Assembly (NCBI GenBank): GCA_045600145.1
Contig: JAZRXI010000087.1
Location: 1 to 61,723 of the forward strand
Origin: Clostridia bacterium
Lineage (GTDB): Bacteria > Bacillota > Clostridia > Christensenellales > QALW01
Length of the DNA: 61,723 bases
Reading direction: 5' to 3'
Part shown: one piece after another, positions 17,222 through 55,581 of the stretch
How the letters are laid out: each line of letters starts with the position of its first letter
Position numbering within the stretch: position 1 is the stretch's first letter
Made by a program: the position numbers and the translations under genes
The notes under the pieces: model-generated
Databases searched by the model: none
Told to the model about the DNA's origin: nothing
The model's input: the letters and a program-made list of their open reading frames with translations, nothing else

Positions 17222-17310
17222 TGGTGCCGAAGACCGGGATCGAACCGGTACGGGTGTCACCACCCACGGGATTTTAAGTCCCGGGCGTCTGCCAGTTCCG
17301 CCACTCCGGC
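17222..17310 (-). tRNA. tRNA-Leu (anticodon UAA), CCA encoded
   Basis: The reverse complement folds as a cloverleaf. Acceptor GCCGGAG/CTTCGGC, anticodon stem CGGGA/TCCCG with loop CTTAAAA, a long variable arm, and T-arm with GGTTCGATCC. Confidence 0.9.
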
Positions 17311-41561: not shown

Positions 41562-41635
41562 TGGAGCAGGTGACGGGAATCGAACCCGCGTAGTCGGCTT
41601 GGGAAGCCGAAACTCTGCCATTGAGTTACACCTGC
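41562..41635 (-). tRNA. tRNA-Gly (anticodon CCC), CCA encoded
   Basis: Reverse complement GCAGGTG...TCGGC-TTCCCAA-GCCGA...GCGGGTTCGATTCCCGT-CACCTGC-T-CCA. Perfect acceptor stem and discriminator U. Confidence 0.9.
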
Positions 41636-46976: not shown

Positions 46977-47093
46977 GTGGTGCTCCGATTCAACTCCCAC
47001 CGGCACACTTTCTTTAAATAAAGGGAAAAAAGTCCCCGCTAAAGGTTTTGACGGAGCATCTTTCAAAAATCTGTTTATGAGAGGATGACTGAA

Positions 47094-47798
47094 ATGTTTG
47101 TTAATTATGCGCATCGCGGCGCGAGCGCATATTATCCTGAAAACACGATGAGTGCTTTCTATGCCGGAATTGAAATGAATGCTAACGGAATCGAAACGGA
47201 TATCCATAAGACCAAGGACGGCGTTCTTGTTATGTTCCATGATGATACACTTGAACGAGTAACCGATCATACCGGCAGGATATGCGACCATACATACGAA
47301 GAATTACTCGGTGTCAATGTGTATAACAATGACAAAACCAAAATTGACAAAGTACCCGCTTTTGATGATTTTCTCAAATACTTTTCGTTCAGAAATCTGA
47401 CTTTTGCTATTGAATTGAAGCAGGACAACATAGAAAAAGAAACGGTAGACATTATCGAAAAATACGGTATATGTGATAAAGTGATAATAACTTCGTTTTC
47501 TTTTGAATATCTCCGCCGTGTTAAAGAGTATGCACCCAAATACAAAATAGGGTATCTTTACAAAGATGATGACAACGCACTTGAAAAGGTGCTTTCGATA
47601 AACGGTGAGCAGCTTTGTCCGTATGCAAAAAGCATTACGCCTGAATTTGTAAAAGAAATCAAAAAAACGGGTCTTTCAATCAGAGCGTGGGGCGTGAGTG
47701 ACGAAGAAATTATGCGACGTCTGTATGATTTCGGAGTTGACGGAATGACGGTCAATTTCCCCGATAAGCTTCAAATGTATGTTGAGGGAAAAAAGTAA
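47094..47798 (+). CDS. Glycerophosphodiester phosphodiesterase (GDPD family)
   Basis: YAHRGAS...PENT...ETDIHKTKDGVLVMFHDDTLERVT signature. The ATG at 47094 has better RBS spacing than the one at 47085. Confidence 0.85.
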   Translation: MFVNYAHRGASAYYPENTMSAFYAGIEMNANGIETDIHKTKDGVLVMFHDDTLERVTDHTGRICDHTYEELLGVNVYNNDKTKIDKVPAFDDFLKYFSFRNLTFAIELKQDNIEKETVDIIEKYGICDKVIITSFSFEYLRRVKEYAPKYKIGYLYKDDDNALEKVLSINGEQLCPYAKSITPEFVKEIKKTGLSIRAWGVSDEEIMRRLYDFGVDGMTVNFPDKLQMYVEGKK

Positions 47799-47820
47799 AT
47801 TTATCAGGATAAAAATATAT

Positions 47821-47867
47821 CCCCGCAGAGATTCGCATTGCGTTTTGTTGCGGGGAAAGTTTTTTTG
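47821..47867. terminator. Hairpin terminator at the left edge of the AT-rich block
   Basis: CCCCGCA (47821-47827) / TGCGGGG (47849-47855) followed by AAAGTTTTTTT. Confidence 0.5.
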
Positions 47868-48021
47868 TTTGTTGCCATTTGTTTATTTAATTTATGCTGA
47901 AGCCAAAATCGCAAGATTTCGGCAGAAAAAGCATGAAAATGCTTTTTCTCAAACTGCTAATGATGTGTCGGCAGTTATTCAGCAGACATTATTTAATAGA
48001 ATGGGCGGTGTTAAATGCGAA

Positions 48022-48957
48022 TCAAATGAAATCGTTGATGTTGAATTTCCATTCTTTTCTTTTTCTGAATGGCTGCTTGAACTTTTTAGTTAAAACACCT
48101 TTTGATTCAAGATGGATGTAACAAGCCACATCACATGATCTTCCGCAAATAGAACATTGGTATGCGTGTTGAGCAGGGGGATAAAAATAGATGTTATCAA
48201 GGATTTTTTTTGCCGTTTCGGGGTCGACTTTGGCTTCTCCCGCTATTATTTCCAAACGATTATCAAACCCGGAAAAAGCATCGGGTGGCATGAACGGATT
48301 TTTTAAACCGTTTGCCCCGTTATAATACACTGCACATTGCCACTCATCGACTTTTCCGTCTTTGCTTATTGCGTTACCGGGACATGCCTTTATACATTTA
48401 CCGCAATTATCGCAAAGCTTTGTCGTTTTGATCTCGTCGGGCTTTATTTCGGCATCGGTCAGAATAAAGCAATAACGCACCATGGGGCCGAAATCAGATG
48501 TAAGCAATGCTCCGCTGAGTCCCTTTTCACCAAGACCGCATTTTACCGCCGCATCAACGAAATCCATTTGATTTTCGGCAGTCTTATTTCTGTAAACAGC
48601 ATCATATGCGACCTCCGGATTGGTACTGTTCTTTTCTTGCATGATTTGCTGATGACGACGTTGCGGTACTGCTAAAAAGCCATTACTTTCCAAAAAAACG
48701 GAAATTTTCATCTGTGCCATGGGCATTATGGTTTCTTCCATGTTTTCAACGCCCATTGTGGTATACTGATAATATGTAGTTCCCTCTTCCGTACCTCTGT
48801 AAACACCGCGGAGAACTCTGAATCCCAAACCTATTACCGTTTTTGTTTGAGGGAAAATTTTGAATATCGCATCGCTTTTATCAAAAGCTTCGGCACTTGC
48901 GAATCCGACAATATCGGCAAAATTGTCCTTTGCGATTTCTATGATTTTTGATTTCAT
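48022..48957 (-). CDS. QueG/RdhA-superfamily Fe-S protein, paralogue 3 (last gene of the operon)
   Basis: QueG-like N-terminus (IIEIAKDNFADIVGFASAE), CGLGEKGLSG, RYCFILTDA, CDNCGKCIKACPGNAI, WQCAVYY and CSICGRSCDVAC. ATGA overlap with paralogue 2. Confidence 0.65.
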   Translation of the reverse strand: MKSKIIEIAKDNFADIVGFASAEAFDKSDAIFKIFPQTKTVIGLGFRVLRGVYRGTEEGTTYYQYTTMGVENMEETIMPMAQMKISVFLESNGFLAVPQRRHQQIMQEKNSTNPEVAYDAVYRNKTAENQMDFVDAAVKCGLGEKGLSGALLTSDFGPMVRYCFILTDAEIKPDEIKTTKLCDNCGKCIKACPGNAISKDGKVDEWQCAVYYNGANGLKNPFMPPDAFSGFDNRLEIIAGEAKVDPETAKKILDNIYFYPPAQHAYQCSICGRSCDVACYIHLESKGVLTKKFKQPFRKRKEWKFNINDFI

Positions 48958-49862
48958 TTTTTTTCTCCTTTCAGATGACGATAGCAGGCAACATCACATT
49001 TTCTTCCGCAAAGGCATGGAGTATATCCCCATTGCGTATTCGGCAGAAAGTCCATTTCCTTAAATATTTTCCTTGCACTATCGCTGTCAAAACGCTTTTT
49101 ACCGTTTAATATCGTTTCTCTTTCGGGATCATCTTTCAAAAACTTTTCGGTAATAAACGGGTTGGATTTGTGTGCTCCCTTGTAATAAACAGCACATTGC
49201 CAAGTGTCAAGCCCGTCATCGCCGATCGCGTTACCGGGACATGCTTTTATACATTCTCCGCAATTATCGCAAATACTTTCGGTCAAAGGCCCATCCGTCT
49301 CGAGAGGCGCGTCGGTAATGATAAAACAATATCTTATAAAAGGTCCGTAATCCTTATTGATTATTTTACCGCTCAGTCCCTTTTCACCTATACCGCATGC
49401 CCTTGCCGCCTTACCGAAATCAATTATAACATCGGGTGCGGGCTTTCCGTCAGCAACGGGTACCGCATGGATAAGCTCATAGGTGTCCAAGACCTCGGGA
49501 TTGGTCGTCTTATCTCCTTTAATACGCAAATTCGGTATTGATTTCTGAAGGCAGGCGTCATACCCTGCATTTTCTATCATAGCTCCGATTTTAAGTAAAA
49601 AAATCTCCGCCATTTCTTCATCAATATACTTTACTCCCATTGAGGTATATGTATAATACTGACTTCCTATATCCATTGTCATATAAAGACCCTTCGGTAC
49701 TGCAAATCCAAAGCCGATCATACATTTTGCATTCGGCAAAATCATTTTTGGGTCTCTCTGTATATCTTCATTTTTGAATAGATCCAACGAGCCTATGCCG
49801 CAGATCGCGGCACCGAGCTCTTTTGCTTTTGCTTTTATATCTGACGCTGTCAACATTTTCAT
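48954..49862 (-). CDS. QueG/RdhA-superfamily Fe-S protein, paralogue 2
   Basis: Shares TNPEV, CGIGEKGLSG, RYCFIITDA, CDNCGECIKACPGNAI, WQCAVYY and CLCGRKCDVAC with paralogue 3. AGGAG precedes the start. Confidence 0.65.
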   Translation of the reverse strand: MKMLTASDIKAKAKELGAAICGIGSLDLFKNEDIQRDPKMILPNAKCMIGFGFAVPKGLYMTMDIGSQYYTYTSMGVKYIDEEMAEIFLLKIGAMIENAGYDACLQKSIPNLRIKGDKTTNPEVLDTYELIHAVPVADGKPAPDVIIDFGKAARACGIGEKGLSGKIINKDYGPFIRYCFIITDAPLETDGPLTESICDNCGECIKACPGNAIGDDGLDTWQCAVYYKGAHKSNPFITEKFLKDDPERETILNGKKRFDSDSARKIFKEMDFLPNTQWGYTPCLCGRKCDVACYRHLKGEKK

Positions 49863-49880
49863 TTACTCCTAATCCGTTTT

Positions 49881-50225
49881 TTAACTCTGACAATACTGCT
49901 TTTCCGTATTATCTTTTGATGTATCACTGTTTTCTATAACCAAAACGGTTGCATCACGACTTACGACGATATGGTGCCATTCGCCTTTCGGAACTTCATA
50001 CGCTTTGTTTACTTCCAACTTTTCGGATATTATGTTTTGATCGCTTTTGACATATAATTCCGCCGTTCCGGACATCAGAACGAATACTTCCGCCGTTTGT
50101 GTGTGACGCTCCCATATGCCGATATGAGAGAATCTGTCGGAATAGCGCAGAAACCCGATTTTCCAACCCTCAAAGCTGAAAACTGCCTTGAAGTCGGAGC
50201 CGTCATACGAATATATGTTCATCAT
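49881..50225 (-). CDS. Small cupin-fold protein
   Basis: About 114 aa with cupin-like motifs (ERHTQTAEVFVLMSGTAELY ... PKGEWHHIV). Its ATG overlaps the TGA of the upstream paralogue. The ORF track extends to 50243. Confidence 0.6.
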   Translation of the reverse strand: MMNIYSYDGSDFKAVFSFEGWKIGFLRYSDRFSHIGIWERHTQTAEVFVLMSGTAELYVKSDQNIISEKLEVNKAYEVPKGEWHHIVVSRDATVLVIENSDTSKDNTEKQYCQS

Positions 50226-51316
50226 CAGCGATCCAATTTCCATGTCTTTTTAGTTCTCAACGGCTCTTGAAAATGTCCTTCAAGACAACCGCCCTTTTTC
50301 TCGAGAACAGAAACGCATCCCCGTATACATCCTCCGCATTTTGCCATATTGTAGCCGACCCAGCTCGGGAAATACTTTTGAAGTGCGGTATACACCTTCA
50401 TTATTTCATGTTCATTTGCAACATTGGTAACGCCCTCCATAAGGTCAAGCGCACCGTCTTTGTTTTCATCCCAAACTTCTTTGGGAACAAACGGATTGTA
50501 GTATCTGCCGGCATGCGTATAGAAAGCATAGCAACGCCACATATCAATATCTCCCCATTCACAAACTTTGCCCTCTATATTGACTGTGACCGTTTTACCT
50601 GAATCTATTGCCGGTATACATCCTCCCGGGCACTCTCTGACACATGCACCGCATCTCCGACATAACGGCTTACCATTGTACATTTCATCATATTCATCAA
50701 AATCAGCATCGGTAAATATGAAGGCAACACGCTGTAACGGCCCGAATTGAGGAGTTAAAAGCATTTTGCTCCAACCTATTTCACCAAGACCGCAGGCAAC
50801 CGCCGCAAGACGAAATTGAAACTGTAAATCAGGCGGTACATTATCTTCTCTTGTAGCTCGGGTAAACTGAACATTTCTATGATGCGCAGTAGCGTTTTTG
50901 GCATTTTCGTTTACTTCTATCTGCTCTTCCGGAGAAAGTGAGTTTCCTTGACTTCCGTCCATATCCGAAACGCAGCCTCTGGCGCCTGTATTCCGATAAA
51001 CAAATGCCTCATACCCCTCATCCTCTATGACTTTCCCTACTGCATAAAGAACAGCCGGAGCGAAAATCTCGTTTATACCGCCGTAAGCCATAGAGGGATA
51101 TTGATAAAACTGAGTCCCCTCCTCTATTCCTCTCTGAACACCCCTTGGTATTCGAAAAATAAAACCTATCATGGATTTGGCTTCGGGGAAAAGATACATC
51201 GGGTTCATCTCGTCCGGAGCCCCTTTCATCCTTGTGATAGGCGCGATCCCGCAGGCATCGGCACCTGCTTTTAACGCCATTTCTTTAATTAGTTTACTGT
51301 TAAGCATAGTATTCAC
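50225..51316 (-). CDS. QueG/RdhA-superfamily Fe-S protein, paralogue 1 (longer and more divergent)
   Basis: IKEMALKAGADACGIAP N-terminus, ACGLGEIGWS, RVAFIFTDA, CRRCGACVRECPGGCI, MWRCYAFY and KCGGCIRGC. It starts 5 nt after the U32-like gene's stop. Confidence 0.6.
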   Translation of the reverse strand: MNTMLNSKLIKEMALKAGADACGIAPITRMKGAPDEMNPMYLFPEAKSMIGFIFRIPRGVQRGIEEGTQFYQYPSMAYGGINEIFAPAVLYAVGKVIEDEGYEAFVYRNTGARGCVSDMDGSQGNSLSPEEQIEVNENAKNATAHHRNVQFTRATREDNVPPDLQFQFRLAAVACGLGEIGWSKMLLTPQFGPLQRVAFIFTDADFDEYDEMYNGKPLCRRCGACVRECPGGCIPAIDSGKTVTVNIEGKVCEWGDIDMWRCYAFYTHAGRYYNPFVPKEVWDENKDGALDLMEGVTNVANEHEIMKVYTALQKYFPSWVGYNMAKCGGCIRGCVSVLEKKGGCLEGHFQEPLRTKKTWKLDR

Positions 51317-51321
51317 CTTTC

Positions 51322-52278
51322 TTATATCCCGTCTATTCTTTTCAGCTTTAACGGTTCTCCGTTTTCCAGCACATAAGGATATATTGAATGTGTCGGCTCT
51401 AAAATTCGGAGAATGTCTCCGCTGTATTTTTCGTTTATATAACTTTTCAATACAAGCTCCGGATCATTATGAACTCTTGTAGCAAGCTTTACCGAAACAA
51501 AATAATCTTCGTATAAATGAATATCTTCGGGACGTACGAAATTTGTTATTTGAGGCAGCTTTTGAATATTCTCTTGCTTTTTCAAAAATTCTTTGCAAAT
51601 ACCCGTAAAACTATATGCGTTGTCCATTTTGGAAATTTCATCCTCGCGAGCTACAAGGTTATCATGAAAATTATGTGCCGAGCAATTATTCAGACAGCCG
51701 CTGTTGGCAAGCATAAACAATTTTTTTGAATTTCTGTCGCACCATTGCTTCAAAATTTTTATTTTATCAAAATCCCGATTAAGCTCTCTGCGCATATAGT
51801 AAGAATCAAAATATTCGGATAGGTATTCCATGCCTTCGACAGAACCGATTTCCATATTGACGGAAGCTCTTGTTTCTAAAGTTTCAAAATTGTTTTTAAT
51901 GAATTTGGCAATCAGTGGTGAAGTGGTCGTAACAGATGAAAGACCGTAATTATTATTTATGTAATCTACTGTATTGCCGATTTTGCAGAAAAAAGCTCTT
52001 GACAGGCTGTCTTTTCCGTAACAATTTCCATTGAAAAGAAGGTTTAACCTGATGTTGTTTTTGCTTATATTTTTAAGGGCATTTCTTTGTGTATCAATTC
52101 GCTCGATTTCCGACATCGTGTCTCCTATAACCAGATTGCTTCTTCCGTTCGGAAAATCACCGAATGAAAAATATACCTCGTAAATATGCTCTTTGTTTTC
52201 CGTTATGCAATTCAGAAAAGCGGGATCATTATTTGGTAAGCCTACTGAATACTTCAAAATACACACCTGCAAATTCAA
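51322..52278 (-). CDS. Divergent peptidase-U32-family-like (TIM-barrel) protein, first gene of the operon
   Basis: The layout resembles U32 proteins (VYFSFGDFPNGRS; TTTSPLIAKFIKNNF..LETRASVN; FMLANSGCLNNCSAHNF). It does not match the canonical U32 signature exactly, so the assignment is tentative. Confidence 0.4.
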   Translation of the reverse strand: MNLQVCILKYSVGLPNNDPAFLNCITENKEHIYEVYFSFGDFPNGRSNLVIGDTMSEIERIDTQRNALKNISKNNIRLNLLFNGNCYGKDSLSRAFFCKIGNTVDYINNNYGLSSVTTTSPLIAKFIKNNFETLETRASVNMEIGSVEGMEYLSEYFDSYYMRRELNRDFDKIKILKQWCDRNSKKLFMLANSGCLNNCSAHNFHDNLVAREDEISKMDNAYSFTGICKEFLKKQENIQKLPQITNFVRPEDIHLYEDYFVSVKLATRVHNDPELVLKSYINEKYSGDILRILEPTHSIYPYVLENGEPLKLKRIDGI

Positions 52279-52369
52279 ATTTTCATATTGATTTTATCAC
52301 ACATTTACGCTATAATGAATATATAAAACAATAAAATTCTTTAATATAACAAACTTTTAGAGGTGGATC

Positions 52370-53218
52370 ATGAAGCTGTGTGAGATCAATCCGTTTATAC
52401 GTTTTGCCGAAAAAATAAAAATCAAAAGAAGACCTGAAAAATTCAATGTGTTTGATTCGAGGATCTTTTCGATTTTATCGGGTGTAATTGAAATCAAAAC
52501 AGAAGAAAATTGCTACAATTTGAGACCCGGCGATATATTTTACTGTGCACAAGGAAGCTGTTATACTATCGCGTGCAGTGAGGTGTGTGAATTGATATGC
52601 CTCAATTTTGATTTGACACAGAAAAGAAATACCATCACCGAAGCTTATGCTCCCGTAAAAATCAAATCAAGCTCGGAGGTGTTGTTTTTTAATGATGATA
52701 CTGTTGAAGATTGCGTGTATATCAATAAGTTCTTTTATTTGAAAAACGATTATTTGATCAAAACACAAATAACGAAGATCGCTGATGAATTTGAAAATAA
52801 GCGAATATATTTCAGGGAAAAATCCGGTGCGATCCTAAAAGATATCCTTATTGAAATGAGCAGGAGAGATCTGGAAAAAAATGCTAATTCGTTTGACGCG
52901 GTGGAAAAGACGATGGCATAAATAAATGATAATTACAGAAATAAAATAAACAACGAACAGCTTGCGAGGTTGACCGGATATCATCAGTACTATCTCAACC
53001 GCATTTTTAAGATACAGACCGGTAAAACGATCCATAAATACATTATGGAGGTTCGAATAAATGAAGCCAGAAAAATGCTGATGACAACAAATCTGTCCAT
53101 TTGTGCGATCGCTCAAAAAACAGGTTTTTGCAGTGATACGCATCTTTCTAATTGTTTTGAAGATTATTTTGGTTATAGGCCAATAAAATATAAAGAGCTT
53201 TTCAAAAATAATATTTAG
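52370..53218 (+). pseudogene. AraC-family regulator interrupted by one in-frame TAA (52919-52921)
   Basis: ORFs 52370-52921 (cupin-type sensor domain) and 52970-53218 (HTH: LARLTGYHQYYLNRIFK...FCSDTHLSNCF) are in the same frame. Translation through the stop reads VEKTMA*INDNYRNKINNEQLARLTGYHQYY. Confidence 0.8.
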
Positions 53219-53289
53219 CAAAATCTCGGAACATGGGTGAGGCTCTGCTGAGGGGGCTGCCGGTCATGACGGGCTCGGCGGCGCACATT

Positions 53290-53886
53290 CCCGCTTGCAG
53301 AGGGCAAACGCTCCATCGAGGCGGAACTTCGCCTTGAACGCCATAAGGCAAATTTGTTGTTCGATGAACGCAGGAGCGGTTAAAAATTACGCAGATCTTA
53401 ATTTCCCGAAAAAACGGCAGATAATGAAATCAAGCTGAACGAGGAGATAAAGGAATTAAAAACGGCTGAAAATTCAATCGCAGAGGAAAAAGAAGAGCCT
53501 GAAAAAGAGATTCTTCGGAATCTCGGCATTGATGATGACGAAGAAAAAGCTGAATGCCGTTTTTGAGAAAAACCAACAGAACCCTTACATTCTCTATCAG
53601 TCGGGAGAGTTGGTAAAAGGCATATGTCAAAAGCTTGTGGAGCACGATAAAGCGCATCCGAAATTCAAGAAGACCAATCCGTTTCTCAAGCAGAAAGAGC
53701 TTGATACCGCCAAAAAGACGATGTTACGCGGACAGGAGGCGGCACGGACGATGAAGAGTCACACGGCGGACGCTCCGGAAATGAACGGGATCGAAGAACA
53801 ATACAGAGCCGCTCGATCTTCTTAATGTACCGAAGGACGAAGTGAAGAGTAAATCCAAGCAAAAGACCGCTCTGACCAACAACTGA
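53290..53886 (+). pseudogene. Decayed coding remnant of unknown origin (at least three frame changes)
   Basis: Coding-like segments continue across frames: ...AVKNYADLNFP / FPEKTADNEIKLNEEIKELK...DDDEEK / KKLNAVFEKNQQ...EEQYR / EPLDLLNVPKDEVKSK. The frame junctions fall at A-runs (53409-53414 and 53545-53549). Confidence 0.55.
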
Positions 53887-54143
53887 TACCGCGCATTGGC
53901 GCAGGCAACAGAAAATGCCGATGAGTATATACCTAATTATCCATACCGCATAATGCAAATCAGCCTCAAGCGGCTTTGCACCACTTTTTTTCTCCCGTCG
54001 TAAGTAAGGCGGGAAAAATTTTTTATACGAAGGTGTAAGCAAGAGACACACGAAGTTTTCACAGTTTATCTAATATGTTAAAGCGACGTGACAATCCATG
54101 TCGGCGCAAAAGCACTTAATATGGATTGCCACGTATTATGTCA

Positions 54144-54312
54144 AAAAACTCATAATGACGCAGGGAAGTTTTTTTATCGTGTAACTACTTTGTTTCACGG
54201 CTTTTACTTTAGATAAAGCAACTTAGATAAAGCAACGCGAAGTATCAGTAAAGTCTTTTGCCGCGCTTTTCTTCGAAAAAGCGGGTAAAGGGTGCGGGGG
54301 ACAGAGCCCACA
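54144..54312 (+). repeat. Intergenic repeat copy D (core deleted, 3' module retained, internal 14-nt tandem duplication)
   Basis: TACTTTGTTTCACGGC..ACTTTAGATAAAGCAAC..CGAAG..CAGTAAAGTCT aligns with 56485-56580. TTAGATAAAGCAAC is duplicated at 54209-54222 and 54223-54236. Confidence 0.65.
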
Positions 54313-54328: not shown

Positions 54329-54592
54329 TCACGGATGCGGAGCGGCTGCGGCATTTTTATAGCTTACGACGGGCAAACGTGCGCTGAGAATCGCCCCTGC
54401 TCCTTTCCGCTCGATACTTATTGATATTTTATCATAATCCGGCTCTATATATTTTATTGCGGCTGAGATTATATCGGCGGTCATCTGCAACAAAAATTCG
54501 GCAGATACGTTGGCTCTGTCACGTGATACAACAGACATAAGACGTTGCTTTGCCGTATTACTGCTTGTACTTTTTTTGAAAAATCCGAACAT
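54329..54592 (-). CDS. minE: Cell division topological specificity factor MinE
   Basis: MFGFFKKSTSSNTAKQRLMSVVSRDR matches the conserved MinE membrane-targeting/anti-MinCD N-terminus. Confidence 0.88.
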   Translation of the reverse strand: MFGFFKKSTSSNTAKQRLMSVVSRDRANVSAEFLLQMTADIISAAIKYIEPDYDKISISIERKGAGAILSARLPVVSYKNAAAAPHP

Positions 54593-54614
54593 AAATATTC
54601 CTCCTTATACGGAT

Positions 54615-55406
54615 TTATACTGCTCTTTTTCCGAAAATTTTGCCGATGAGTGCGGAAAGTCCTCCCGTAATATTTATGGGAATATTTTCGCCGATCAGTC
54701 TGTGCGCAATATTTTCGTATTCTTTACCCGCGCGGCTTGACGGCAGATTCAGTACAGGCTCGCCGAGATTTGCGGCACGGACGATGCTTGCGTCATCCGG
54801 CACTGCACCGATTGCCTTTTGCCCGAGAATATCCTCGACATCTTCGATACTCAGCATATCGCCGCCGCGAATCAGCTCTTGCTTGATACGGTTTATTATA
54901 AGTGAAACATGCGCAATTTCGCTTGTTGCCATCAGTCCGATGACCCTATCGGCGTCGCGTACTGATGACACCTCGGGGGTACATACAACAAGTGCTTCGT
55001 CGGCACCTGCTATCGCGTTTTTGAAGCCCTGTTCAATTCCTGCGGGACAGTCAAGCAAAATAAAATCATATAGCGGCTTCAATTCGTTAAGCAACTCACA
55101 CATTTGCTGCTCGCATATCGCGTTTTTATCGCGTGTCTGGCTTGCCGGCATGAAACTCAGATGTTCATTACGCTTATCTTTAATGATTGCTTGTCGAATA
55201 CGGCACTTGTTTTCGATAACGTCAACTATATCAAAGACGATTCGATTTTCAAGTCCGAGCACCGTATCAAGATTCCGCAAGCCGAGATCGGTGTCGATAA
55301 GCAGAACCTCCTTACCCAATCGGGCAAGACCGCATCCGACATTTGCACAGGCTGTCGTTTTGCCTACACCGCCTTTTCCGGATGTTACAACGATTACTCT
55401 ACCCAT
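54615..55406 (-). CDS. minD: Septum site-determining ATPase MinD
   Basis: MGRVIVVTSGKGGVGKTT deviant Walker A and a C-terminal amphipathic helix (LIGKIFGKR). AGGAGG lies upstream of the ATG at 55406; the ORF extends to 55493. Confidence 0.92.
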   Translation of the reverse strand: MGRVIVVTSGKGGVGKTTACANVGCGLARLGKEVLLIDTDLGLRNLDTVLGLENRIVFDIVDVIENKCRIRQAIIKDKRNEHLSFMPASQTRDKNAICEQQMCELLNELKPLYDFILLDCPAGIEQGFKNAIAGADEALVVCTPEVSSVRDADRVIGLMATSEIAHVSLIINRIKQELIRGGDMLSIEDVEDILGQKAIGAVPDDASIVRAANLGEPVLNLPSSRAGKEYENIAHRLIGENIPINITGGLSALIGKIFGKRAV

Positions 55407-55581
55407 ATGTGATTCCTCCTTTGTATTGCCTATGATACAACCTTGCTCTGAAAAAAGAAAGAACTCTTTTTGTCGAAAGAATGTTTTTGACAAAACAAGA
55501 AAAAAGCTTTCAAAAAACGCACTGCAAAATTGACAAAAATATCAAATGAAGATATAATTATATGCAAGGAGGATGCGGATC

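Follow-up and report, generated by a model that had tools for sequence, protein, structure and literature searches.

A gene cassette pairing a U32-like protein with three QueG/RdhA-type paralogues in gut Clostridia

Gene content and conservation of the cassette

The cassette considered here lies at positions 47988-53224 of a 61,723-nucleotide stretch of DNA from an uncultured Clostridia bacterium (contig JAZRXI010000087.1 of assembly GCA_045600145.1), and this whole stretch is called the window below. The cassette probably encodes a new oxygen-free redox enzyme for a sugar-derived compound. Five genes follow one another on the minus strand: p1 (51322-52278), for a U32-like protein of 318 amino acids (aa) from a TTG start, or 314 aa in the database form; p2 (50225-51316), for a product of 363 aa, or about 360 aa from the ATG at 51307; p3 (49881-50243, or up to 50225 with an inner ATG), for a cupin of 115-120 aa; p4 (48954-49862), for a product of 302 aa; and p5 (48022-48957), for one of 311 aa. 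The products of p2, p4 and p5 are of the QueG/RdhA type. Divergent from p1, and separated from it by an intergenic region of 91 nt (52279-52369), an AraC-family gene runs on the plus strand (52370-53221) and is broken by one in-frame TAA codon.

The initial annotation of this DNA, made from the letters alone, had described the five minus-strand open reading frames (ORFs) as one translationally coupled operon. All five are present at the coordinates that it gave, and their packing, with overlaps or gaps of no more than 18 nt, is as described. The gap between p1 and p2 measures 5-14 nt depending on the start chosen, p2 and p3 overlap, 18 nt separate p3 from p4, and p4 and p5 overlap by 4 nt (ATGA). 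The direct repeats found in the DNA inside the operon reflect the paralogue similarity of p5, p4 and p2. No signal peptide or twin-arginine (TAT) motif was seen at the N-terminus of any cassette protein when the sequences were read directly, no membrane-anchor gene is found in the cassette, and its proteins are predicted to be cytoplasmic.

One scan of species-representative genomes recovered the cassette from at least 251 species-level genomes; the counts of gut loci given below come from the best 80 of these 251. All 80 are metagenome-assembled genomes (MAGs) of gut-type Clostridia, belonging to the Acutalibacteraceae, Oscillospiraceae, Lachnospiraceae and other families. According to their isolate names, the sources are gut compartments of goat, roe deer, water buffalo and water deer, as well as rabbit ('Lapin') and Hadza samples. 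In 61 of 65 loci, the core p1-p2-p4-p5 has all four genes in unchanged order, so that the gene order seen in the window recurs in other genomes, in agreement with a single operon. The unit is nevertheless smaller than the five genes first proposed: the cupin is optional (31 of 65 loci), the conserved unit is the four-gene core, and further genes that are optional elsewhere are absent here. A divergent AraC gene accompanies the cassette in 56 of 73 loci. The cassette was not found in viral contigs. The only MAG of the 80 labelled as a 'complete genome' (L065, CP091729.1, 12004-15753) has p2 and p5 split into two to three ORFs and a shortened p4; gene decay or long-read frameshift errors could explain the split genes.

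The subunits differ in their rate of change. Identity to the window copy is 80-87% for p2 (74 loci), the most conserved subunit, 72-80% for p4, 65-77% for p5, 56-76% for p1, 30-63% for the cupin and 27-55% for the AraC protein. Thus, p1 diverges faster than p2, and the conservation of p2 is about that of pyruvate:ferredoxin oxidoreductase (PFOR) among the relatives of the window. The proportion of synonymous differences (pS) is saturated against all 80 loci (0.7-0.83), and that of nonsynonymous differences (pN) goes from 0.105 in p2 to 0.25. Because synonymous sites are saturated while the pN of p2 is only 0.105, the similarity reflects purifying selection and not recent exchange, and the substitution pattern indicates that this selection is strong. 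Recent transfer among the 80 loci of the genome scan is ruled out, since synonymous sites are saturated against each of them. In protein databases, p1 has 3,212 relatives and p5 has 2,630 (E<=0.001), and among the top matches listed, those with a name are only 'hypothetical protein' or '4Fe-4S binding protein' entries from Clostridia MAGs.

Protein families of the core subunits

The U32-like nature of p1, suggested in the initial annotation, is not apparent from its sequence alone. The protein has no Pfam or NCBIfam match, PF01136 (Peptidase_U32) included, even at E<=0.1, and a phmmer search of the PDB with p1 alone gave chance matches only. The assignment was borne out by other means. The AlphaFold (AF2) model of p1 is a TIM barrel (pLDDT 80, pTM 0.82) whose top PDB match in Foldseek is the U32 protein Mk0906 (5D88; E=1.4e-9, TM 0.67), with other TIM barrels next at about 5e-5. 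An exhaustive search returned 807 clusters of p1 relatives; among 49 diverse relatives, 13 match Peptidase_U32 (two of them above the gathering score), and no other family is matched by more than two. Furthermore, when the p1 family profile was compared with the whole PDB, the sole match was again 5D88 (E=0.0028). On account of the fold match, of the relatives that match PF01136 and of the profile match, p1 is placed in the U32 superfamily as a very divergent member.

Four cysteines of p1 (C86, C195, C199 and C228), the presumed ligands of one [4Fe-4S] cluster, do not vary in any of 81 orthologues and are nearly invariant in the wide family as well. Their spacing, C86-x108-C195-x3-C199-x28-C228, departs from the CX6CX15CX3/4C motif of the U32 oxidases and from the CXnCX12CX3C motif of UbiV (PMC6747719). 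In profile comparisons, a narrow p1 alignment gave no match with Escherichia coli UbiU or UbiV, and a broad p1 profile gave a weak match with UbiU (E=0.007) and none with UbiV; for this reason, the cysteines of p1 are not mappable onto the U32 ligands. As far as the likeness goes, p1 shares with UbiU/UbiV, TrhP, RlhA and Mk0906 a TIM barrel, nearest to that of 5D88, is linked to the U32 Fe-S proteins by profile-level and transitive sequence homology, and has, like UbiV, four conserved cysteines with the first one far upstream of the other three. Like UbiU with UbiV, it would also work with a partner protein. Unlike the U32 Fe-S proteins, it gives no PF01136 match itself and has another cysteine spacing; unlike UbiU and UbiV, its partner is a QueG/RdhA-fold protein and not a second U32 protein, and the cassette has no accessory protein of the SCP2/UbiT type.

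The other three core proteins had been called QueG/RdhA-type paralogues, and here the evidence from sequence and from fold concurs. Their mutual identity is 41% for p5/p4, 32% for p5/p2 and 28% for p4/p2, with E-values from 2e-73 to 1e-35, and they are best regarded as true paralogues. By phmmer against the PDB, p5 matches PceA (8.7e-11) and QueG (4e-7); a profile of the three paralogues gives stronger matches than p5 alone, with RdhA E-values down to 2.9e-13 over the cofactor core. In Foldseek, all 46 PDB matches of the p5 model (AF2, pLDDT 75) with E<1e-3 are QueG, PceA/RDH or NpRdhA, with QueG at the top; after these come the B12-handling proteins CblD and CblC. As in QueG (5D08, 5T8Y, 5D6S), the predicted fold comprises an N-terminal nitroreductase-like corrinoid domain followed by a ferredoxin module for two [4Fe-4S] clusters, the core motif 'A-x-G-(I/L)-G ... 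G-(P/S) ... C-x2-C-x2-C-x3-C-P' is held in common, and the proteins are soluble, without a signal peptide. With the RdhA proteins (PceA 4UQU/8Q4H; NpRdhA 4RAS/6ZXU), they share the best sequence E-values, the fold, as modelled for p5, and the paired clusters.

Each paralogue carries two [4Fe-4S] motifs (CxxCxxCxxxCP plus C...CxxxCxxxC). Their eight cysteines are invariant in the orthologues of p2 (75), p4 (73) and p5 (71), with the sole exception of one p2 that has Gly, so that the Fe-S ligands are retained in each paralogue family. Together with the presumed cluster of p1, seven [4Fe-4S] sites are predicted across p1, p2, p4 and p5. Other features are specific to one paralogue or to the trio. 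An insertion of about 50 aa is found in p2. The residue that aligns with QueG Arg141 in the HMM alignment is Arg in 75 of 75 p2 orthologues, and it is Gly, Asn or Ser in those of p4 and Leu, Glu or Val in those of p5; Arg141 of QueG lies beneath the corrin ring (PMC5175355). All three families have an extra invariant cysteine (p5 C140, p4 C156, p2 C175) in the motif 'A-C-G-(L/I)-G-E', at a position where QueG and RdhA have Ala ('A-G-(I/L)-G'), in the loop beside the corrin and the proximal cluster. A near-invariant Y-x-Y pair (Y63/Y65 in p5) is also found in the three paralogues, with at most one to two exceptions per family; it sits in a low-confidence loop of the model and is not alignable to the Tyr of QueG. 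We infer that the trio may use a corrinoid, most likely in p2.

The differences from both known types are considerable. Unlike QueG, the three proteins have only 300-363 aa and end soon after the last cysteine motif, without the C-terminal HEAT-like tRNA-binding domain; their TIGR00276 scores (21-48 bits against a cut-off of 200) cover the shared cofactor core only, and they occur as three paralogues, each with the extra cysteine, next to a U32-like partner under AraC control. Unlike RdhA, they have no TAT leader, no RdhB anchor and no fused NAD(P)H reductase, and the Pfam scan gave no match of any cassette protein with the Dehalogenase family PF13486. The reading of the cassette as a cytoplasmic reductive dehalogenase for halogenated dietary or host compounds draws on the best sequence matches of p5, which are of the PceA type, and on TIGR02486 as the top NCBIfam match. 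The TIGR02486 scores of p2, p4 and p5 reach, however, only 33-52 bits against a cut-off of 160 and are limited to the shared cofactor core. Moreover, the neighbours described below are carbohydrate genes, not an organohalide context, and such extreme conservation from host to host contrasts with rdhA genes, whose diversity is driven by their substrates. We give very little credence to a dehalogenase.

The same features can also be read the other way round, with p1 as the sole catalyst, an O2-independent hydroxylase or oxidase similar to UbiU/UbiV, TrhP or RlhA, and the QueG-like trio, its corrinoid lost, as a wire of six Fe-S clusters that leads the electrons away. Every characterised U32 Fe-S protein is a hydroxylase, and the catalytic residues of QueG are not conserved, p4 and p5 having no equivalent of Arg141. 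The extra invariant cysteine replaces Ala near the corrin site in all three paralogues, and there is no cobamide-related gene or riboswitch nearby. A wire, however, would not need the N-terminal corrinoid-binding fold, which is wholly kept and is the most conserved part (p2 80-87%). The faster divergence of p1 relative to p2 would be unusual for the only catalyst, and p1 does not have the CX6CX15CX3/4C motif. A catalytic p1 with an electron-carrying trio is an unlikely reading, if one to be taken seriously.

Genomic context and proposed function

The association between U32-like and QueG-like proteins extends beyond the gut cassette, since distant relatives of p1 still precede p2-like genes. 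For instance, p1 is 47% identical to the window protein and p2 72% identical in locus L085, and in L087, which has no cupin, the values are 37% for p1, 49% for p2, 45% for p4 and 48% for p5. With distant p1 relatives as seeds, a metagenome scan yielded 80 loci, which according to the record names come from bioreactor, human-gut and many unnamed JGI samples. In 23 of the 27 non-gut-type loci with both sides visible, a QueG/RdhA-like gene adjoins the U32-like gene, usually upstream. Judged by these gene neighbourhoods, the pairing is general. In the environmental loci, one to five QueG-like copies are found per U32-like gene, and the neighbours encode AraC and IclR regulators, solute-binding proteins, MFS and ABC transporters, glycoside hydrolases and a PF12831 flavoprotein. 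Directly before the QueG-like/U32-like pair of L104 (6036-11023) come genes for a Fer4_22 protein, for a 238-aa protein of unknown type and for a PyrK/AsrB-type subunit (NAD_binding_1 plus DHODB_Fe-S), which look like a dedicated NAD(P)H-linked electron-input module and speak for a redox role.

Given the variation from one to five QueG-like copies, independent enzymes with a shared helper fit as well as a fixed complex. The three QueG-like proteins of the gut cassette would then be separate enzymes for different substrates or for successive steps, as with the multiple rdhA genes of organohalide respirers, and p1 would be no stoichiometric subunit but their shared reductase, activator or cofactor-loading helper. 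That the paralogues are old and distinct, with 28-41% mutual identity against 65-87% to their own orthologues, is in line with this idea. In the gut clade, however, the three genes are never found rearranged and incomplete sets are uncommon (61 of 65 loci are complete), whereas independent enzymes should be gained and lost one by one; the start/stop overlaps also suggest a fixed stoichiometry. Separate enzymes around a common helper appear improbable to us. The three paralogues are non-interchangeable and the U32-like partner looks obligate. In the preferred reading, we infer that p1, p2, p4 and p5 would form one complex, kept in fixed proportion by translational coupling.

A further p1 relative was noticed in another setting. 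In L086 (78-3420), a protein with 31% identity to p1 and a C-terminal CxxxCxxCxYC extension is encoded directly after a YcaO gene and a 95-aa precursor-like ORF that ends in a Cys-rich tail, which suggests that the U32-like family is used there for a ribosomally synthesised and post-translationally modified peptide (RiPP). The wider U32-like family thus has at least one other use, given the proximity of that relative to YcaO and to a precursor-like peptide. In the cassette of the window, a RiPP precursor peptide is ruled out, the gaps being too small for a small ORF.

The optional genes and neighbours of the gut cassettes point to glycan-derived substrates. A DUF5696 gene is found at variable positions in 18 of 43 loci, and the best PDB matches of its product are GH129 alpha-N-acetylgalactosaminidase (5e-14), 3,6-anhydro-D-galactosidase and GH101. 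In 8 of 65 loci, a radical-SAM/SPASM gene is placed precisely at the p1/p2 junction; its product matches, over the full length, the 'tungsten cofactor oxidoreductase radical SAM maturase' model (TIGR04317-like), at 262 bits against a cut-off of 380. A membrane protein of the YgjV family, which we take to be related to the PnuC nucleoside transporters, is encoded between the cupin and p4 in 6 of 65 loci. Elsewhere, the neighbours of the cassette include GH31, GH3, GH9 and GH29-like enzymes, sugar ABC permeases and SBP_bac_5 proteins, and Gfo/Idh/MocA genes are found near it in 18 loci. The glycosidase, transporter and maturase genes are absent from the cassette of this genome. With a glycosidase in no more than 18 of 43 loci, and without a fixed place, the connection with glycans is contextual. 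In L001/L008 (1-7032) and four other loci, the cassette directly follows genes for a glycyl-radical enzyme, its activase and up to four Gfo/Idh/MocA proteins. A gene for a PF12831 FAD oxidoreductase lies near the cassette in five gut loci and, near its counterpart, in L128.

This arrangement resembles the AraC-controlled carbohydrate operons of Firmicutes in its divergent AraC gene with a cupin-type sensor, in the co-encoded glycosidase or transporter of many loci and in its CAZyme neighbours. Unlike them, it has a core of multi-cluster Fe-S redox proteins and not of kinases, isomerases or aldolases. The same surroundings bear on another explanation, in which the cassette would act on a nucleoside or an RNA component, by modification or salvage; free epoxyqueuosine and glycosylated queuosine are examples. 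The best structural match of p5 is QueG, the U32 members TrhP and RlhA hydroxylate tRNA and rRNA (PMC11574389), and the YgjV-family membrane protein and the glycosidase of some loci could serve such a salvage route. A role of this kind is nonetheless very unlikely. In addition to the missing tRNA-binding domain, the low TIGR00276 scores and the absence of an Asp134 counterpart in the alignment, the Rfam search of the window and of 14 related loci gave no riboswitch, whether of the preQ1, the cobalamin or any other type. The patchy, accessory distribution, the AraC control and the CAZyme surroundings also speak against it.

The reading that we prefer, to which a probability of about 0.45 is given, is that the cassette encodes an inducible, cytoplasmic multi-Fe-S oxidoreductase that would carry out a ferredoxin-fed, corrinoid-dependent reductive cleavage of a glycan-derived molecule. 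An anaerobic hydroxylation or reduction module for a small molecule from diet or host had been put forward, as conjecture, in the initial annotation. In the present proposal, a glycan or glycoside would yield the small molecule that serves as substrate; its release or import would be the task, in related loci, of the GH129/GH101-like glycosidase and the YgjV-type membrane protein. The AraC regulator would sense it. Low-potential electrons, probably derived from ferredoxin (a PFOR gene is close by), would travel through the Fe-S clusters to an active site of the QueG kind. This site, which p2 most likely provides and which most likely contains a base-off corrinoid, would cleave a C-O (or similar C-X) bond by a two-electron reduction. 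The U32-like p1 could perform a second Fe-S-dependent step on the same substrate or act as the electron entry point, and the metal cupin p3 would assist.

Several observations weigh against this proposal. The catalytic Asp134 of QueG has no counterpart in the alignment (His106 is outside the aligned stretch), neither a cobalamin riboswitch nor a cobamide gene was found near the cassette in the window or in the 14 related loci, and no electron-donor module is encoded within the cassette. There is no sequence motif that is diagnostic of class III B12 enzymes (PMC4646009). The characterised U32 proteins are hydroxylases and not reductase partners (PMC6747719; PMC11574389), and the cysteine spacing of p1 is unlike theirs. 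The variable number of QueG-like copies outside the gut clade and the sporadic presence of the DUF5696 glycosidase do not favour the proposal either. Finally, the cassette may be unexpressed in this genome, whose regulator is broken.

On the family level, no characterised pathway had been recognised in the initial annotation, and the searches of curated families and of the literature were equally empty. No description of the cassette or of a pairing between U32 and QueG-type proteins was found in the literature. The curated libraries hold no model for p1 and give only sub-threshold matches to the core of p2, p4 and p5. The cassette is therefore described as a family-level combination and architecture, undescribed so far, of known superfamilies. 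To our knowledge, the QueG/RdhA class has two established functions only, dehalogenation and epoxyqueuosine reduction. The U32 Fe-S proteins have been recognised recently as O2-independent hydroxylases, and their mechanism is unsolved. Further class III families, unrecognisable by sequence motif, were expected by the authors of a structural study of QueG (PMC4646009), and a 2024 review counted the U32 oxidases among the unsolved questions of gut metalloenzymology (PMC11574389). As a broader and more tentative proposal, on the doubtful side, the U32-like plus QueG/RdhA pairing might be a widespread two-component class of anaerobic metalloenzymes, a new class III branch for O2-free C-O chemistry (e.g., reductive deoxygenation or ether/epoxide opening) on glycan-derived substrates, the gut version of which would be a four-subunit, seven-cluster complex.

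The interest of the cassette is that it unites both families in one strongly selected unit, found in more than 3,000 protein clusters and, at species level, in at least 251 genomes. Once its reaction is known, it could reveal new chemistry in the anaerobic metabolism of glycans or xenobiotics in the gut, offer a tractable partner system for studying the role of the U32 Fe-S clusters, and allow thousands of 'hypothetical protein' and '4Fe-4S binding protein' entries to be annotated. The finding means less for the genome studied here, whose copy, probably acquired, has a broken regulator.

Cupin, regulator and origin of the copy in this genome

The cupin call for p3 is probably right, although its Cupin_2 score (24.9 bits) is below the cut-off of 27.2 and its match with WbuC-like proteins is weak. 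The best PDB matches are the cupins 3d82 and 3d0j (4e-6), and the metal-type ligands H47, E52 and H90 are invariant in 37 of 37 orthologues. The product of p3 is best seen as a small metal cupin and an optional member of the cassette.

The AraC-type gene had been noted as a divergent regulator. It does start at 52370 and encode a cupin-like sensor domain (52370-52918) and an HTH_18 domain (52922-53218, 66 bits), but an in-frame TAA at 52919-52921 splits it into a sensor part of 183 aa and an HTH part of 82 aa in the same frame. The homologue in L089, the locus closest to that of the window, is intact, with 282 aa, 82% identity on both sides and Tyr184 at the position of the TAA codon. Either a nonsense mutation of recent date or an error in sequencing would account for the TAA, and as it reads, the gene would be a nonsense pseudogene in this genome. 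With the frame of the regulator broken, the operon should be uninducible here if the AraC protein is an activator. In the intergenic region, a promoter-like TTGATT-17-TATAAT is found on the plus strand (52288-52316); it is a consensus match only, of a kind that occurs at chance level, and the promoter and terminator scans gave results at chance level.

The composition of the cassette differs from that of its surroundings. The initial annotation had set its low G+C content against about 60% in a PFOR line, a contrast that was overstated, as the whole PFOR gene has a G+C of 0.52. The deviation itself holds: the G+C is 0.41 in the operon and 0.464 in the remaining window, and the third-position G+C (GC3) is 0.36-0.40 in four of the five cassette genes (0.48 in the cupin) against a background of 0.50 +/- 0.043 (39 genes), a shift of about 2.3-3.2 standard deviations (SD) for those four. 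Low G+C as an intrinsic feature of the cassette is ruled out, since in 53 of 60 other loci the operon G+C equals or exceeds that of the flanks (mean +0.021, SD 0.024), whereas the operon of the window falls 0.054 short of its flanks.

The low-G+C tract coincides with the block 47988-53224, which is also the extent of the homology with the closest relative, L089. This locus is a Logan contig with a G+C of 33.6% throughout, in which DpnD-PcfM, DUF6744 and AAA_14 genes adjoin the cassette; by blastn, its nucleotide identity to the window is 80-88% over 47988-53224, and the homology ends at both edges, with nothing beyond. The 998-bp radical-SAM gene of L089 (6536-7533) is cleanly absent from the p1/p2 junction of the window (51317-51321), the break falling exactly between the stop codon of p1 and the ribosome-binding region of p2. 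The horizontal acquisition proposed earlier is supported by the composition, by the variable genomic contexts of the cassette and by the fact that the identity with L089, in a genome of 34% G+C, ends at the cassette edges. The cassette was probably acquired from a Clostridia lineage of lower G+C. Since the operon G+C (0.41) falls between that of L089 and the host background of 0.464, acquisition followed by partial amelioration seems a reasonable account. No empty insertion site was found; the contig with the closest PFOR relative (92% aa identity) shares only the PFOR gene and is not syntenic.

In the window, the cassette is flanked by a GDPD gene and by minE/minD. Debris and repeats had been described on the right side, which is true in part. 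The 1.1-kb stretch between the cassette and minE (53225-54300) has neither a long ORF or intact gene nor a match in Pfam, PHROGs, plasmids or Rfam, and close to its end there is a perfect 14-nt tandem duplication, TTAGATAAAGCAAC x2, at 54209-54236; the other repeats, within the operon, are due to paralogy. An 18-nt inverted repeat (53181-53198/54442-54459) brackets the stretch. A mobile-element remnant at 53225-54300 is not supported, as there is no match in plasmids, PHROGs or Pfam. Beyond it, at 54329-55493, lie minE, with a match to Pfam MinE, and a neighbour whose PHROG match is ParA-like and which is read as minD from its position beside minE. On the other side, the GDPD gene (47085-47798) has a G+C of 0.39 and is outside the block shared with L089; GDPD-like genes are also found near the cassette in L024 and L159. 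Two tRNA genes are present in the window, at 41565-41635 and 17225-17310.

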